Shown here one piece after another: positions 2,357 to 24,424 of a stretch of DNA of 64,000 nt. Where the stretch lies: the sequence record PX104379.1; one strand, given 5' to 3'. Each line of letters opens with the position of its first letter. Within the stretch, counting starts at the first letter, position 1. Position numbers and translations under genes: made by a program. Origin of the DNA: a phage. Below the pieces are notes generated by a model. The model worked only from the letters and a program-made list of their open reading frames with translations. It was not told the origin of the DNA and made no database searches.

Positions 2357-2504
2357 TTTTTGAACCGATACAAGCGAATAATGATAAAACTACTAATGTC
2401 CCTTGAGCTATTGACTGTAAAAATACTGAAGTTTCTCCAGTTATTATTGTTTCGGCGAATAAAAAGGACCAACAGAAAAAGGCTATACCATGAACAAATT
2501 TCAT
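2349..2504 (-). CDS. ac: Ac-like small membrane protein (51 aa; acridine sensitivity locus in T4)
   Basis: MKFVHGIAFFCWSFLFAETIITGETSVFLQSIAQGTLVVLSLFACIGSKND; GAGGA RBS; position between 52 and stp as in T4. Confidence 0.6.
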   Translation of the reverse strand: MKFVHGIAFFCWSFLFAETIITGETSVFLQSIAQGTLVVLSLFACIGSKND

Positions 2505-2511
2505 ATTTTCC

Positions 2512-2592
2512 TCACTGGCGTCCGAAGACGCCTTTAGTTTTAAGATTATTACGATAGAACTGCATCACATGTTCGTTATGGAAATTACTCAT
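2512..2592 (-). CDS. stp: Stp peptide (26 aa; PrrC anticodon nuclease activator / restriction antagonist)
   Basis: Translation [26 protein letters not shown] matches T4 Stp as I recall it; start overlaps ndd stop (TAATG). Confidence 0.8.
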
Positions 2593-3035
2593 TAATATGC
2601 CTGCAAAACAAATTTAAAGTTATCAGCCAACATACGGTTCATTTCTTCAAGTGTTTGATACTCAGAATGATGATTACGAGTAAACGCCAAAGCTAACTGA
2701 CCTTTACCAAATCCTGTCGTCAGAGGTTTCATCTTAGAAGCAGGCAGATAAAACACTGTGTATACTATATTGTTATTTGCAATAGTACGCGCAAGTTGAG
2801 ACCGGCGTTGACGAATATGACTTAGAACTGCGCTGAATCCTTGCTTAGAACGCTGATTACCCACATAAAATCGTGCAGATACGCATGAACCATCGAATTC
2901 ACTTACTAAAAAGTAAAATCCAGGTTTAGATAAAATATCTTTATGCGGAGTTCCCAAAAACCACTCACCACCCTTGATTGTACCAATAACAGTTGCGCCT
3001 GCATTGTTCAGATCAGTAACAGTCATATATTTCAT
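2592..3035 (-). CDS. ndd: Ndd nucleoid disruption protein
   Basis: ORF 2592..3083; likely start at internal ATG ([11 protein letters not shown]...) with GAGG RBS 9 nt upstream; ~147 aa versus ~151 aa for T4 Ndd. Confidence 0.7.
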
Positions 3036-3095
3036 ATTAATTTCCTCTAAATTATTTTCTACTCCAAGGCCGCATGAATACACACGGCCATTAAA

Positions 3096-3311
3096 TTAAT
3101 CGTCGCAGTCGACGCTCAATTCCCAAAACTCTTCTACAGTATAAGTTTCAGTATCATTTTCAATACAGAAACGTTCATTACTGTTATTTGCTAAAGTAGC
3201 ATTAACTGTCGGTTTCTCGCTAGTGCTCTTAAGAGGTGAAATACGAATTAACTGATCACCGTTATCTAAACAGAAAATTTCACCAACTTTTATATCTTTA
3301 AAGATTTTCAT
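3096..3311 (-). CDS. hypothetical protein (71 aa)
   Basis: ORF track; compact leftward gene array. Confidence 0.45.
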   Translation of the reverse strand: MKIFKDIKVGEIFCLDNGDQLIRISPLKSTSEKPTVNATLANNSNERFCIENDTETYTVEEFWELSVDCDD

Positions 3312-10728: not shown

Positions 10729-11096
10729 TTAAATTTAATGGCTTGAAGAAGACTAATAACTCTCAAGCGGCTTCTTTCATCTTTAACTGTAAAAGAAAGA
10801 GGATCGCCAGATTTCATAGTGATAGTGCATTCAAAATCAAAATCTTCTGTAACTTCTTCGAATAGGTCAAATTCTTCATCATAAATTAGAACATTACTCT
10901 GAAAACTGTGAAGAATTTTTCCATCATTTCCAGATGCTGTACTAATCATTGTGACATTATTACCTTTCATATCTTCAACGATAAATTCGCTTGTAGATAT
11001 TACATTACTAATAGAACCATTCCTATAAATAGCAGAAAATAGATATTTCTTTTCTTCACCTTCGCGAATGCGATATTTCTTACCGATTTTAAACAT
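10725..11096 (-). CDS. hypothetical protein (~123 aa)
   Basis: ORF track; ATG at 11096 preferred over the GTG at 11102. Confidence 0.5.
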   Translation of the reverse strand: MFKIGKKYRIREGEEKKYLFSAIYRNGSISNVISTSEFIVEDMKGNNVTMISTASGNDGKILHSFQSNVLIYDEEFDLFEEVTEDFDFECTITMKSGDPLSFTVKDERSRLRVISLLQAIKFK

Positions 11097-15722: not shown

Positions 15723-17042
15723 TCACACATAAAACACATCATAACGACCACGGGTGACACCAACATAAAGAAGTTGTTGGGCCAATTCAGCATCTGCATA
15801 ATGAATACAAGGCGTATAAATGAAAGCACGGTCTACAGACATACCCTGAGCTTTATGGAATGTTGATGCAGGAAGTGCTTTCACTTTACTAAACTGTGAT
15901 TTAGCATCCCAAAAATCACTCCATGGAGCTTTTCCGCCTTTGTTCCAATTTTTATAAGTTTCTGCCGTTTTACCTAAAAATAGGTTAAACTTATACAATT
16001 CTTCATCAGATGAAATTATTTTAATCTTTTCACGATAATATTCATCATCGCCGTAAGTTTCTACTGTTAAATCCCAATGACGAATTAAGTATTCTCCAGG
16101 AACACCACGAGCTTTAACAAACGTTGATGTATACTCTGCTTCTATAATACGAACTAATTGTCCGTTATTAAAAATAATTTCTGACACAGGCTTTCCATCA
16201 ATTTTATATGTTTTAATTAATGGTTCCTGCATTACAATAATTTCACCAACAATAAAATCTTTATCAGTTTCAAAAATCTTTTTACGAATAATGCTATTTA
16301 ACTTGTCAACAGATTTATTCGTAAATGCCATTACGCGATTTTCAAACAAATCATCTAAAGATTTGACGATTGAAAAATAATTTACCATAAAATCGCGTAA
16401 AGCGGTATCACCAGTAAATCCACGTACTCCATGCCCGTCAACAACTTTATCATAAATCCACTTACCGTTACGAACATCAGTAGCTACATCAATAATAGGA
16501 GCATTACTGCGTTTAACTTCAGTAAGTTCACACTGATAAAAATCTTTGTGTGTAAAGAATGGACTGATATAAGCAGTATTTTCTCCTGGGTCAACAGGTC
16601 TAATTTGCTTATTATCGCCTATTCCAATTATAGTACACCACGGTGGGATAGTTGAAAGCAAAATTTTGAAGAGCTTTCTATCATACATTGACACTTCGTC
16701 GCAGATTAATACCCTGCATTTAGCTAAATCTGGTACTTCTTTTTGTTCAAAAAGAACGTTTTCTTCATACGTAACTGGGTTAATTTTAAGAATACTGTGA
16801 ATAGTACTCGCTTCTTTCCCCGACAGTTTTGAAAGAATCTTTTTAGCTGCATGAGTAGGAGCTGCTAAAATAATACCAGTTTCACCCGTAGATATTAAAG
16901 CTTCAATGATGAATTTTGTAAGAGTAGTCTTACCAGTACCAGCAGGTCCATTAATAGTTACATGATGTTTCTTTTCTTTAATAGCCCTCATAACGATGTT
17001 AAAGGCATTTTTCTGGCCTTCTGTCAAATCATCAAATGTCAT
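15723..17042 (-). CDS. dda: Dda DNA helicase (SF1)
   Basis: 439 aa as T4 Dda; Walker A GPAGTGKT; helicase motifs. Confidence 0.92.
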   Translation of the reverse strand: MTFDDLTEGQKNAFNIVMRAIKEKKHHVTINGPAGTGKTTLTKFIIEALISTGETGIILAAPTHAAKKILSKLSGKEASTIHSILKINPVTYEENVLFEQKEVPDLAKCRVLICDEVSMYDRKLFKILLSTIPPWCTIIGIGDNKQIRPVDPGENTAYISPFFTHKDFYQCELTEVKRSNAPIIDVATDVRNGKWIYDKVVDGHGVRGFTGDTALRDFMVNYFSIVKSLDDLFENRVMAFTNKSVDKLNSIIRKKIFETDKDFIVGEIIVMQEPLIKTYKIDGKPVSEIIFNNGQLVRIIEAEYTSTFVKARGVPGEYLIRHWDLTVETYGDDEYYREKIKIISSDEELYKFNLFLGKTAETYKNWNKGGKAPWSDFWDAKSQFSKVKALPASTFHKAQGMSVDRAFIYTPCIHYADAELAQQLLYVGVTRGRYDVFYV

Positions 17043-21919: not shown

Positions 21920-21927
21920 TATTTATA
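21920..21927 (-). promoter_or_regulatory. T4 late promoter TATAAATA upstream of soc
   Basis: Minus strand ttatTATAAATAatc about 30 nt upstream of GGAG and the soc ATG. Confidence 0.6.
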
Positions 21928-21957: not shown

Positions 21958-22476
21958 TTAATAACCTCGGTCCTGACGAGCAAAGTTCTCGGCATTTTTC
22001 AGATAATAAAGTTTAAAGATTTCTTCTGCTGTAAGACCAAGACCCTGGAACATATTCAGAACGAAATGAAGAATATCAATCATTTCAAATTTAATTTCTA
22101 ACTGGTCTTGTGGAGACAAATCAGTAATCAGAGTTTCACGACGTTCACCATGCTGCGACTTCCAAGGTTTCCATACAGCAGATGCGTCTTTTTCACCATT
22201 ACTCATACCACCAAGAGAAGTCAGAAGTTCACGGAATTCATCGTCAATATAATCTTTCTGATTACGCAACCAATCAACAACTTCACCGGCAGTAGCCAAG
22301 TCATCAGGATGACGATTATATTCAGGTTTATCTTTAGCTAAACGAATCTGCAGAGATTTCTGCATGTCAAGCATTACCTGCAGCGGGTCTTTTTCATCAC
22401 CGAGAATATCCCAATATTCATTTTGAGCTTTATCAGCGCCTTCGATCAGTTGACTACATTCGTTGAAATGTGGCAT
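21958..22476 (-). CDS. 56: dCTPase/dCTP pyrophosphatase gp56
   Basis: 172 aa versus 171 aa for T4 gp56; MazG-like. Confidence 0.85.
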   Translation of the reverse strand: MPHFNECSQLIEGADKAQNEYWDILGDEKDPLQVMLDMQKSLQIRLAKDKPEYNRHPDDLATAGEVVDWLRNQKDYIDDEFRELLTSLGGMSNGEKDASAVWKPWKSQHGERRETLITDLSPQDQLEIKFEMIDILHFVLNMFQGLGLTAEEIFKLYYLKNAENFARQDRGY

Positions 22477-22477
22477 G

Positions 22478-23128
22478 TTATTTTTCCTTTCTTATGAAGT
22501 TTTCTATCATATGTCTATAGCAGATATTAGGATAACCTGCCTTGACAGCTATTTTATTAAATTTTGTGCGCTTAGGTCTATTATTATAAACCCATAATTC
22601 ATAAAGCGCATCATAACTATTCCATATTTCTCCTCGCCTAGGATTTGGTAAACCATATCGAGGTGAATTTTTACCGCTAAATCTTCCTTTTCGGGCTTTA
22701 CTCATATTAGCCTTGGCTTCATCGGATATAATTTTACCTTTATGAGCTAGACGCATTTTGGCTTTAGTTTCTTCTGGGGTCTTTTTGCCTTTAATCCATG
22801 ACGGCTTGCCATATCTAGGATTATTTTCACCCGAGAAAAGAACAGAGTTTTGGATTTTAAGGGTTTCTATTAATCTACTTGTTAATTTAACACCTTTATT
22901 ATATCGCATTAAATTTACAGCATAATGCAATCCTCTCACATCTGGATATATTTTAGTTAATAATCTATGAGCTATAAAATGCTCACGCGCAGTTAACTCA
23001 ACAAGATTGTTTTTGTCATCTGCTCCTCCTATACATCTAGGAATTATATGATGGCGTTCTTTATATCCGCCAAGATGCCGGCATTTAGCTTTTGTAATTA
23101 AAGCCGAGTAAATTTTTTGGTAATTCAC
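22478..23128 (-). CDS. free-standing HNH homing endonuclease (216 aa), GTG start
   Basis: HNH motif YKERHHIIPRCIGGADDKNNLVELTAREHFIAH; repeated NPRYG(K/L)P modules; GTG start with AAGGA RBS. Confidence 0.75.
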   Translation of the reverse strand: MNYQKIYSALITKAKCRHLGGYKERHHIIPRCIGGADDKNNLVELTAREHFIAHRLLTKIYPDVRGLHYAVNLMRYNKGVKLTSRLIETLKIQNSVLFSGENNPRYGKPSWIKGKKTPEETKAKMRLAHKGKIISDEAKANMSKARKGRFSGKNSPRYGLPNPRRGEIWNSYDALYELWVYNNRPKRTKFNKIAVKAGYPNICYRHMIENFIRKEK

Positions 23129-23161
23129 ATATATCCTTTCAATTCATGGGTTAGTAGATTA

Positions 23162-23185
23162 ATTATACAATAAATATATAAAGCA
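23162..23185 (-). promoter_or_regulatory. MotA-box middle promoter upstream of the HNH gene
   Basis: Minus strand TGCTTTA, 11 bp, TATAAT. Confidence 0.45.
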
Positions 23186-23198
23186 ATAAGGAGGATAT

Positions 23199-23399
23199 AT
23201 GGTACAAAAATTAATGGCACTTGTTAATGCCATAAAAGGTAATAAAAAACGTATAGCTTTTACTATTTCTGCTATGGTAGGAATTTTACTCTGGAACTTT
23301 ATTTTATCACCAATTGCAATTGCGCATGGTGTTAATATTCCAGTAGTTACTCTTGATACATTCGTAGATCTAGCATTTGCTTTAGTTGGGTTAATTTAA
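23199..23399 (+). CDS. plus-strand small membrane protein (66 aa), convergent with gene 61
   Basis: Strong SD AAGGAGG 7 nt before ATG; two hydrophobic segments; one of the only plus-strand ORFs that does not overlap another CDS. Confidence 0.5.
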   Translation: MVQKLMALVNAIKGNKKRIAFTISAMVGILLWNFILSPIAIAHGVNIPVVTLDTFVDLAFALVGLI

Positions 23400-24424
23400 A
23401 TCTTGGCATATTTAGATAGCCGCATTTTAGCCATTAACCCCTGGGCAATATTATTTTTCATATATTCCATAATTTGTTCAGGGGTTGCACCTTCCTTTCT
23501 AATCATATCATTGACATCTTTTGATTTCCAGGGAGATTTATCCCAAAACATAACCCTTTCTCCTGCATCAACTAATTTAGTCATTCGTTTGATAGTGTCA
23601 GGGTGACGAGGTTCATTATCTAAAACCCACACTCGTCTATCTTTAAATGGAACAATTTCTAGGTCTAATTGACCACCCGTAATAGCTATACCATTTTCAA
23701 TAAAAAGTGAATCTATAGGTCCTTCTAGAACATATACATCACCATCTTTAACTCGTTCGACTCCATATATTTTTGTTGCCTCAGGATAAGCTTTGATGGT
23801 GATATATTTTTGAGGAGCATCTTTCTTTAATGCACGTCCTTGAAAAGACTCAGCTTTTCCATTAGCATTATAAATTGGAATAACAAGACGAGGCTCAGAA
23901 ATTTCCTTTTTGTATGTTCCCGGTGCTATGCTATTAACTAATTTAGGCCATTCAGTTGTAAACCAAAGATATTTCCATTTATCCTTTGGAATACAACGAG
24001 CTTTTACATATTTTATAATTGGATGGTCTTCCGCCAGTTTATCTAATCTAACACATGACGGAAGAGATTTAATTATTTTCTTCTCAAGTTGTTTAGGAAG
24101 TTCTTTAGGTTTTTCTACTGGACGACTTTTACCTTTTTCTTTTCTTATTTCAAAGATATACTCACGATATAAATCAGGTTCAAACTCCTTTAAATATATT
24201 CCGATTGGTGCATGATAGTTACAGTTATAACAATGAATATTTCCTTCATTATTATCACCATAATACCATCCACGAGCTTTATTCTGGTCGGTTTTTGAAT
24301 CTCCACAAACAGGGCATCTAAACCGTAATTTAAAAGTTGAACTATTATTTACTTGTGTGAATTTAGGTAAATGAGCTAATGCACGATACGCAAACTCATT
24401 ATCAATCCAAGGTATTGATGACAT
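23396..24424 (-). CDS. 61: DNA primase gp61
   Basis: 342 aa as T4 gp61; N-terminal zinc-binding Cys cluster; Toprim-like centre. Confidence 0.9.
   Translation of the reverse strand: MSSIPWIDNEFAYRALAHLPKFTQVNNSSTFKLRFRCPVCGDSKTDQNKARGWYYGDNNEGNIHCYNCNYHAPIGIYLKEFEPDLYREYIFEIRKEKGKSRPVEKPKELPKQLEKKIIKSLPSCVRLDKLAEDHPIIKYVKARCIPKDKWKYLWFTTEWPKLVNSIAPGTYKKEISEPRLVIPIYNANGKAESFQGRALKKDAPQKYITIKAYPEATKIYGVERVKDGDVYVLEGPIDSLFIENGIAITGGQLDLEIVPFKDRRVWVLDNEPRHPDTIKRMTKLVDAGERVMFWDKSPWKSKDVNDMIRKEGATPEQIMEYMKNNIAQGLMAKMRLSKYAKI

Follow-up and report, generated by a model that had tools for sequence, protein, structure and literature searches.

The interval between gene 56 and the primase gene 61 of this T4-like phage is read as a homing endonuclease gene of the Mob family located beside an unrelated, conserved gene that probably encodes a late membrane protein. 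A probability of about 0.75 is assigned to this joint reading. The two genes are independent neighbours and unrelated to each other.

Layout of the 56/61 interval

The window, i.e. the whole 64-kb stretch of DNA that was analyzed, belongs to a T4-like phage of the genus Tequatrovirus. For the 2.6 kb that surround the 56/61 junction, matches were found in 698 phage records, most of them with a nucleotide identity of 90-99%. The features of the locus are:

21958..22476, minus strand: gene 56 (dCTPase/dUTPase), the downstream neighbour of the HNH gene
22444..22476, minus strand: first 33 nt of gene 56 (codons 1-11, MPHFNECSQLI), candidate target or co-conversion tract
22478..23128, minus strand: HNH ORF of 216 aa with a GTG start, from the ORF listing
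22485..22491, minus strand: GAAAGGA, downstream repeat copy and gene 56 Shine-Dalgarno sequence, inside the last HNH codons (RKEK and stop)
23134..23140, minus strand: GAAAGGA, upstream repeat copy, which serves the HNH GTG and is the native gene 56 leader in HNH-less genomes
23162..23188, minus strand: predicted MotA-type middle promoter (MotA box TATTGCTTTA at 23188..23179, 11 nt, TATAAT at 23167..23162)
23169..23176, plus strand: late-promoter-like AATAAATA, the A(-13) variant of TATAAATA, 22 nt before the ATG of the small ORF
23188..23194, plus strand: Shine-Dalgarno sequence AAGGAGG of the small ORF
23199..23399, plus strand: small ORF of 66 aa, convergent with the primase gene 61
23204..23233, minus strand: terminator-like hairpin and T-run, inside small-ORF codons 6-12
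23396..24424, minus strand: gene 61, DNA primase, the stop of which overlaps the small-ORF stop

The plus-strand ORF was found as described in an earlier note on this DNA, including its AAGGAGG ribosome binding site (RBS) and its convergence with gene 61. The stop codons of the two genes overlap (23397..23399 for the small ORF and 23396..23398 for gene 61), and the ORFs share 4 nt. Gene order in the interval varies among T-even phages:

AR1 and F13076: 56 / small ORF / 61
The window, G4498 and ph0021: 56 / HNH / small ORF / 61
ELT1: 56 / HNH / dam / small ORF / 61
T4: segF / 56 / dam / small ORF (unannotated) / 61

The earlier note had placed genes 69 and dam in this interval of T4 and had seen no methyltransferase-like ORF here. 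The latter point holds, as no homologue of dam or segF was found anywhere in the 64-kb window (tblastn, E > 0.3). In T4, the interval does contain dam, and dam only; gene 69 is segF, and it separates gene 56 from soc on the opposite flank.

The MotA consensus is (a/t)(a/t)(a/t)TGCTT(t/c)A, followed after about 11-13 nt by a TAnnnT -10 element. The arrangement TATTGCTTTA-11 nt-TATAAT matches this pattern well, in agreement with the minus-strand MotA-box promoter that had been placed next to the RBS of the plus-strand ORF. In AR1 and F13076 the same element precedes gene 56, and in ELT1 a T4-type equivalent is found ahead of the HNH gene. The predicted promoter would drive the HNH gene and gene 56 in the window, where the two probably share a transcript, and gene 56 directly in HNH-less relatives. 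The minus-strand hairpin has a fold energy of -8.9 kcal/mol (z = -2.3) and would, as predicted, stop gene 61 transcripts just before the middle promoter.

A Mob-type homing endonuclease gene upstream of gene 56

The HNH ORF is free-standing and starts with GTG, as had been reported. An in-frame TGA is located five codons upstream, the GTG is the first canonical start after it, GAAAGGA precedes it by 6 nt, and the N-terminus (MNY.KIY) is kept in homologues. The ORF is intergenic with its own reading frame, lies outside introns and inteins, and is present or absent at a fixed site.

The nuclease assignment of the earlier note was borne out by alignment. In 37 sequences (the window HNH protein and 36 homologues), the residues H26, H27, P30, G35, N41, E49, H50 and H54 are invariant, and the HH-N-H motif (H26 H27, N41, H50, H54) aligns with the HNH domain of EcoKMcrA. 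The protein matches the profiles of PHROG 655, 'homing endonuclease' (1.3e-59), and of Pfam NUMOD3 (8e-7), the latter with two central repeats at residues ~100-160. The match to Pfam HNH (PF01844; 18.8 bits, E 0.0019) covers part of the model and is below the gathering threshold of 21.4. An HNH-family profile search retrieved the HNH domain of McrA (EcoKMcrA, E 0.009) and the DNA-binding domain of I-TevI (1I3J, E 0.012). In the AlphaFold model the putative beta-beta-alpha core region has a pLDDT >90; fold searches with the whole model gave no significant match. By tblastn, the protein is 45% identical to T6 MobE over the N-terminal 165 aa (3e-27) and 35-37% identical to MobD over its full length (~211 aa).

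The predicted protein thus begins with an HNH nuclease, continues with NUMOD3 DNA-binding repeats and ends in a helical region, which is the layout of the T4 Mob endonucleases in the review by Edgell (PMC2988022). Judged by its sequence, the ORF is a Mob-type free-standing HNH/NUMOD3 homing endonuclease gene, which adds a new landing site, directly upstream of gene 56, to those of the Mob family. The label 'homing endonuclease' is already attached to this gene in many GenBank records of T-even phages.

The distribution of the gene is that of a mobile element. The whole interval is covered in 32 of the 698 matching records, and a protein at least 90% identical to the window HNH protein is encoded in ~56 phage records. 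Overall, the gene is found in about 30-55 of ~700 related records, always between the RBS and the ATG of gene 56. A scan of IMG/VR gave five loci, so that the population-level cross-tabulation is based on the BLAST counts. AR1, F13076, T4 and JD18 do not carry the gene and are otherwise collinear at the locus. Since its occurrence is patchy among close relatives, the HNH gene behaves as a mobile gene. The earlier note had raised the case that relatives carry both ORFs as ordinary conserved genes. This applies to the plus-strand ORF, which is not special in this respect, but not to the patchy HNH gene.

The HNH gene has also been transferred across genera. It is present at the same site in Klebsiella Jiaodavirus (93% amino acid identity) and in Dhakavirus VR5 (79%). 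Between the window and Klebsiella Jiaodavirus, nucleotide identity is 90% in the HNH gene, 75% in gene 56 and 64% in gene 61, and the boundaries of homology coincide with nt 33 of gene 56 and with the GAAAGGA leader. In VR5, the C-terminal ~150 residues are nearly identical to those of the window HNH protein and the nuclease domain is diverged, which suggests that the two proteins have their DNA-binding specificity in common.

The HNH cassette is flanked on both sides by the 7-nt repeat GAAAGGA, and sequence changes linked to its presence extend into the 5' end of gene 56. The gene 56 start ATGCCACATTTCAACGAATGTAGTCAACTGATCG is identical in all five window-type (at least 90% identity) HNH-positive loci that were examined. 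Klebsiella Jiaodavirus is among them, and its gene 56 diverges right after nt 33. Relative to this tract, HNH-less AR1 differs at 9 of 33 nt and then at 0 of 42. Within Jiaodavirus, the HNH-linked changes comprise nt 1-12 of gene 56 and a 2-nt change of the spacer from AATA to AATAAC. VR5, with its 79% identical HNH protein, has a different gene 56 start (ATGGCACATTTT). A co-conversion tract or a change of the target site would give a linked pattern of this kind, and the start of gene 56 is the probable target region of the HNH protein.

A reading of the variant 5' end of gene 56 as an 'immunity' allele that is diagnostic for the HNH gene was considered and rejected. The marked 5' end and the spacer are also present in HNH-less F13076 and KpV477, and the window-type 5' end occurs in ~148 records, compared with ~56 that carry the gene. 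As the marked tract and the HNH gene do not always occur together, the tract may be hitch-hiking donor sequence and not a change that confers immunity, and the cut site could be elsewhere. Marked tracts in HNH-less genomes may represent the footprint of a loss, the ancestral allele that was first invaded, or such hitch-hiking donor sequence. F13076, for instance, has the appearance of an exact deletion from one GAAAGGA repeat to the other, but an allele of the kind first invaded would fit equally well.

These features can be combined into a probable course of events. The HNH gene is a promoter-less cassette that is inserted exactly between the RBS and the ATG of gene 56. It borrows the leader of gene 56 along with the predicted middle promoter native to that gene, and its last codons supply gene 56 with a fresh copy of the RBS. 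The weak GTG start probably holds HNH expression low. In a mixed infection, by analogy with MobA and MobE of T4, the HNH protein would nick or cut the allele that has no HNH gene, in or close to the beginning of gene 56, and through recombinational repair the recipient would acquire the HNH gene and, with it, the first 12-33 nt of gene 56. Loss of the cassette between the two GAAAGGA repeats would leave the marked gene 56 5' end behind.

Alternatively, the HNH protein might have been domesticated to serve the phage, by excluding competitors or satellites or by acting on host DNA, and be kept by selection at the level of the phage. This is considered quite unlikely. Homing endonuclease-derived nucleases of ICP1 phages act against satellites, and homologues of the N-terminal HNH region are found in ICP1 phages. 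Furthermore, the HNH gene is located in an operon with the essential gene 56. Its purifying selection (pN/pS 0.11-0.28) fits domestication and homing alike. The patchy occurrence at one fixed site among near-identical genomes, in contrast, is a signature of homing, as is the fact that the gene is more similar across genera than its flanks, with sharp boundaries of homology. The linked flanking tract, which suggests co-conversion, points in the same direction, and the homing reading is preferred.

A conserved small gene convergent with the primase gene

The small ORF is widespread among T-even phages. By tblastn it was found in 693 phage records, in 503 of them at ≥90% identity. T4 carries it at 97-98% identity (NC_000866, 17738..17938), where the T4 RefSeq record has no annotation for it. 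Positional orthologues with 55% identity in Mosigvirus and 20-25% identity in Dhakavirus and Jiaodavirus are all convergent with the primase gene. No member of the family was found downstream of the primase gene in the representatives of Krischvirus, Biquartavirus, Pseudotevenvirus and Lazarusvirus that were checked. In the match of the ORF to PHROG 2024 (1.5e-31), residues 2-66 align with positions 1-65 of a profile that is 65 positions long. When 5.8 billion proteins were searched with a profile, 113 clusters (90% identity) of 56-73 aa were retrieved, solely from phages of the T-even group. An exhaustive phmmer search of 1.8 billion representatives found no relatives beyond the family; three long repetitive proteins that appeared in it were judged to be spurious multi-stretch matches. 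Literature searches on small ORFs of T4, ribosome profiling or transcription starts at this locus and on an HNH gene at 56/61 yielded nothing specific.

The conservation pattern is that of a coding sequence. Within Tequatrovirus, pN/pS of the small ORF is 0.17, the lowest of the six frames. Reading frame, length, start and strong RBS are kept in four genera of Tevenvirinae, and W32, N33, P38 and G44 (motif W-N-x4-P-x5-G) are invariant while nucleotide identity drops to ~40%. One could argue that the ORF is not a gene and that the DNA is kept for the 3' UTR or terminator of gene 61 and for the promoter region of gene 56. The minus-strand terminator-like hairpin inside the ORF would agree with this, as would the missing T4 annotation and the antisense frame across the ORF, which is open too. 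Such a non-coding role would account neither for the frame, length, start, RBS and motif shared by four genera at ~40% nucleotide identity nor for the low pN/pS, and the composite of promoter, RBS and ATG described below is strongly non-random. This explanation is therefore regarded as very unlikely. No support was found for translation of gene 61 past its stop into the antisense frame, and the openness of that frame is taken as incidental.

The earlier note could be taken to imply that the plus-strand ORF is unusual or tied to the HNH gene and the missing dam, and this view did not survive the comparison. The ORF is kept with or without either gene: AR1 and F13076 have neither, T4 has dam only and ELT1 has both. 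It is >95% identical in these four phages. A functional role within the HNH cassette or the dam/HNH polymorphism, e.g. as an immunity or accessory protein, has only the physical adjacency in its favor. It is refuted by the distribution, with ~690 records for the small ORF compared with ~56 for the HNH gene, and retains next to no probability. By its conservation, the small ORF is a genuine conserved gene of Tevenvirinae that lies outside the mobile cassette.

Upstream of the ORF, AATAAATA fits the pattern of T4 late (gp55) promoters, TATAAATA at -13 to -6. Among 50 listed late promoters of T4, the variant seen most often is A(-13) (PMC2988020), and position -13 is weakly conserved in related phages (PMC1524935). 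The ORF in T4 is preceded by GATAAATA, a rarer variant. In each of the four genera, NATAAATA precedes the ATG by 19-27 nt. The sequence ATAAATA occurs 7 times in the window compared with 40 expected occurrences and is strongly avoided in this early region. The composite ATAAATA-N8-20-AGGAG-N4-9-ATG, in contrast, is found twice, with 0.03 expected; the other occurrence belongs to the late gene soc. The small ORF is thus most likely transcribed late from a putative gp55-type promoter. Because this motif sits within the spacer of the middle promoter on the opposite strand, a segment of ~27 bp appears to serve divergent middle and late transcription. Owing to this nesting, late transcription would cover the ORF for its expression and then continue, in antisense orientation, into gene 61 from its 3' end.

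The earlier note had assigned two hydrophobic segments to the product. The AF2 model contains helices at residues 2-12, 16-42 and 52-63, of which helix 16-42 is a full-length transmembrane helix; the proposed second segment is a C-terminal helix of 12 residues. Residues 19-42 are strongly hydrophobic and are preceded by five K/R residues, and the C-terminus is hydrophobic as well (FALVGLI). Every K and R of the protein falls within the first 18 residues; LMALVNAIK is therefore its one tryptic peptide of practical size, and what remains is a hydrophobic peptide of 48 residues. The protein most likely spans the inner membrane once, with its basic N-terminus in the cytoplasm, and the short acidic C-terminal helix would be periplasmic.

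A small membrane-spanning protein with a late-type promoter might be a holin or a pinholin-like lysis protein, and one UniRef entry of the family is in fact named 'Holin' (P0025). The sequence features do not fit this name, which was set aside. Holins have one or more transmembrane domains and a charged hydrophilic C-terminal tail, and their genes are usually located beside an endolysin or spanin gene. The small-ORF product has no charged hydrophilic tail and ends in LVGLI, and its neighbours are genes 56 and 61, with no endolysin or spanin gene adjoining. Moreover, T4 already has the holin gpt. Apart from one evident misnomer, all other names among the 113 clusters are 'hypothetical', and so is the family in every other source. 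A holin function is accordingly seen as improbable. That the presumed membrane protein acts at the cell envelope in the late phase of infection is a low-confidence guess. An extended version, in which this overlooked late T-even gene acts at the envelope in, e.g., lysis timing or lysis inhibition and its nested promoter provides a temporal switch, is tentative and rather doubtful as a whole. If true, the 56/61 junction would be a compact temporal switch.

Significance and comparison with known systems

The 56/61 interval is an ordinary feature that does not point to a new kind of system, and its overall significance is modest. The remaining interest is small and concerns the homing footprints around gene 56 and the omission from the T4 annotation of a conserved gene, probably a late one, for a membrane protein. 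With its presence and absence alleles, cross-genus transfer, co-moving tract and apparent loss footprints, the HNH locus is a convenient natural system of gain and loss, and it is useful for studying how free-standing homing endonucleases shape marker exclusion around gene 56. The T4 reference annotation misses a conserved gene under purifying selection, the function of which would fill a small gap in a well-studied genome.

Nicking of the target is a property of the Mob proteins, which are inherited in excess when infections are mixed; many of them are encoded by promoter-less cassettes (PMC2988022). Like MobE and MobD of T4/T6, the window protein combines an N-terminal HNH domain with a distinct C-terminal DNA-binding region. 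Its gene is likewise patchy among T-even relatives, intergenic and promoter-less, riding on an early/middle transcription unit (PMC2988022). It differs from them in its site, which is the RBS/ATG of gene 56 and not nrdA/nrdB or nrdC.11/mobD.1, and in the use of a GTG behind a borrowed leader instead of translational coupling. A further difference is the pairing of the same C-terminal domain with a diverged nuclease domain in VR5.

SegF of T4 (old gene 69) and the window HNH gene are both free-standing homing endonuclease genes that flank gene 56, and SegF is absent from many relatives. SegF belongs to another nuclease family, and its gene occupies the downstream side of gene 56, ahead of soc. 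The enzyme is a hybrid, drawn with GIY-YIG and HNH colours in the Edgell review (PMC2988022). The presence of SegF beside gene 56 indicates that this gene is a recurrent landing place for homing endonuclease genes. With I-TevI, the window protein shares NUMOD3 repeats that match the DNA-binding domain 1I3J; its catalytic domain, however, is HNH and not GIY-YIG, and its gene is not intron-encoded. The small ORF, when compared with PHROG 2024, is a plain end-to-end member of that family and shows no difference from it.

Relatives of the HNH protein

The 90% cluster of the HNH protein, the predicted Mob-type homing endonuclease encoded at 22478..23128 (-), includes a 390-aa 'homing endonuclease' (protein entries P0259 and P0260, from Shigella phage SSE1 and an E. 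coli record). Its length is approximately that of the HNH protein and gp56 combined (216 + 172 = 388 aa). A single nucleotide separates the HNH gene from gene 56, and the 390-aa protein is either a frameshift fusion or the product of a sequencing error at this 1-nt gap.

Judged by sequence, the HNH-type gene of Dhakavirus VR5 (2501..3157) is a domain mosaic relative to its window counterpart. Inspection of the alignment by eye, not a computed comparison, shows far greater divergence from the window protein in the nuclease domain (about residues 1-60) than in the C-terminal ~150 residues, which are almost identical. The VR5 gene starts with ATG, and no clear ribosome-binding site is found before this codon.

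The start of gene 56

Two types of gp56 are distinguished, the T4 type and the window type, with a mutual identity of only about 71-74% (T4 and two other relatives' loci, L007 and L010, compared with window 21958..22476). The first 45 nt are common to mosaics of the gp56 types. This pattern may be connected with the fact that T4 carries SegF. In T4, oriA is annotated at record position 16763, which is nt 23 of gene 56 and corresponds to ~22454 in the window. The annotated point falls within the short HNH-linked variable tract of gene 56, and the HNH insertion therefore separates the middle promoter from the origin point by 650 bp.

Late-promoter cores in the window

The late-promoter core is strongly depleted in this early region. 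Across the whole window, TATAAATA is seen twice (10.5 expected) and ATAAATA seven times (40 expected). The window scan yielded two exact core sites, one of which precedes soc:

11024..11031, plus strand: exact late-promoter core; no obvious ORF behind it in the window
21920..21927, minus strand: exact late-promoter core; the site that precedes soc

The small ORF and the 56-61 interval

Antisense to the 66-aa plus-strand ORF (23199..23399), the following frame is open:

23164..23395, minus strand: open frame of 78 codons past the gene 61 stop codon

It is the frame of the HNH ORF, and its openness is probably incidental. In T4 (NC_000866.4, 17738..17938), the 66-aa ORF is uninterrupted and 97-98% identical to the window copy. 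In the T4 RefSeq record, dam and gene 61 are separated by a 310-nt gap with no annotated CDS, and the ORF is labelled as a hypothetical protein in other T4 records.

Gene swapping has a hot spot in the 56-61 interval. In Klebsiella phage KpV477 (2555..4150), the insert found there is a different and larger one, with a DNA methyltransferase among its contents, and the HNH-type 5' end of gene 56 is retained together with the spacer.
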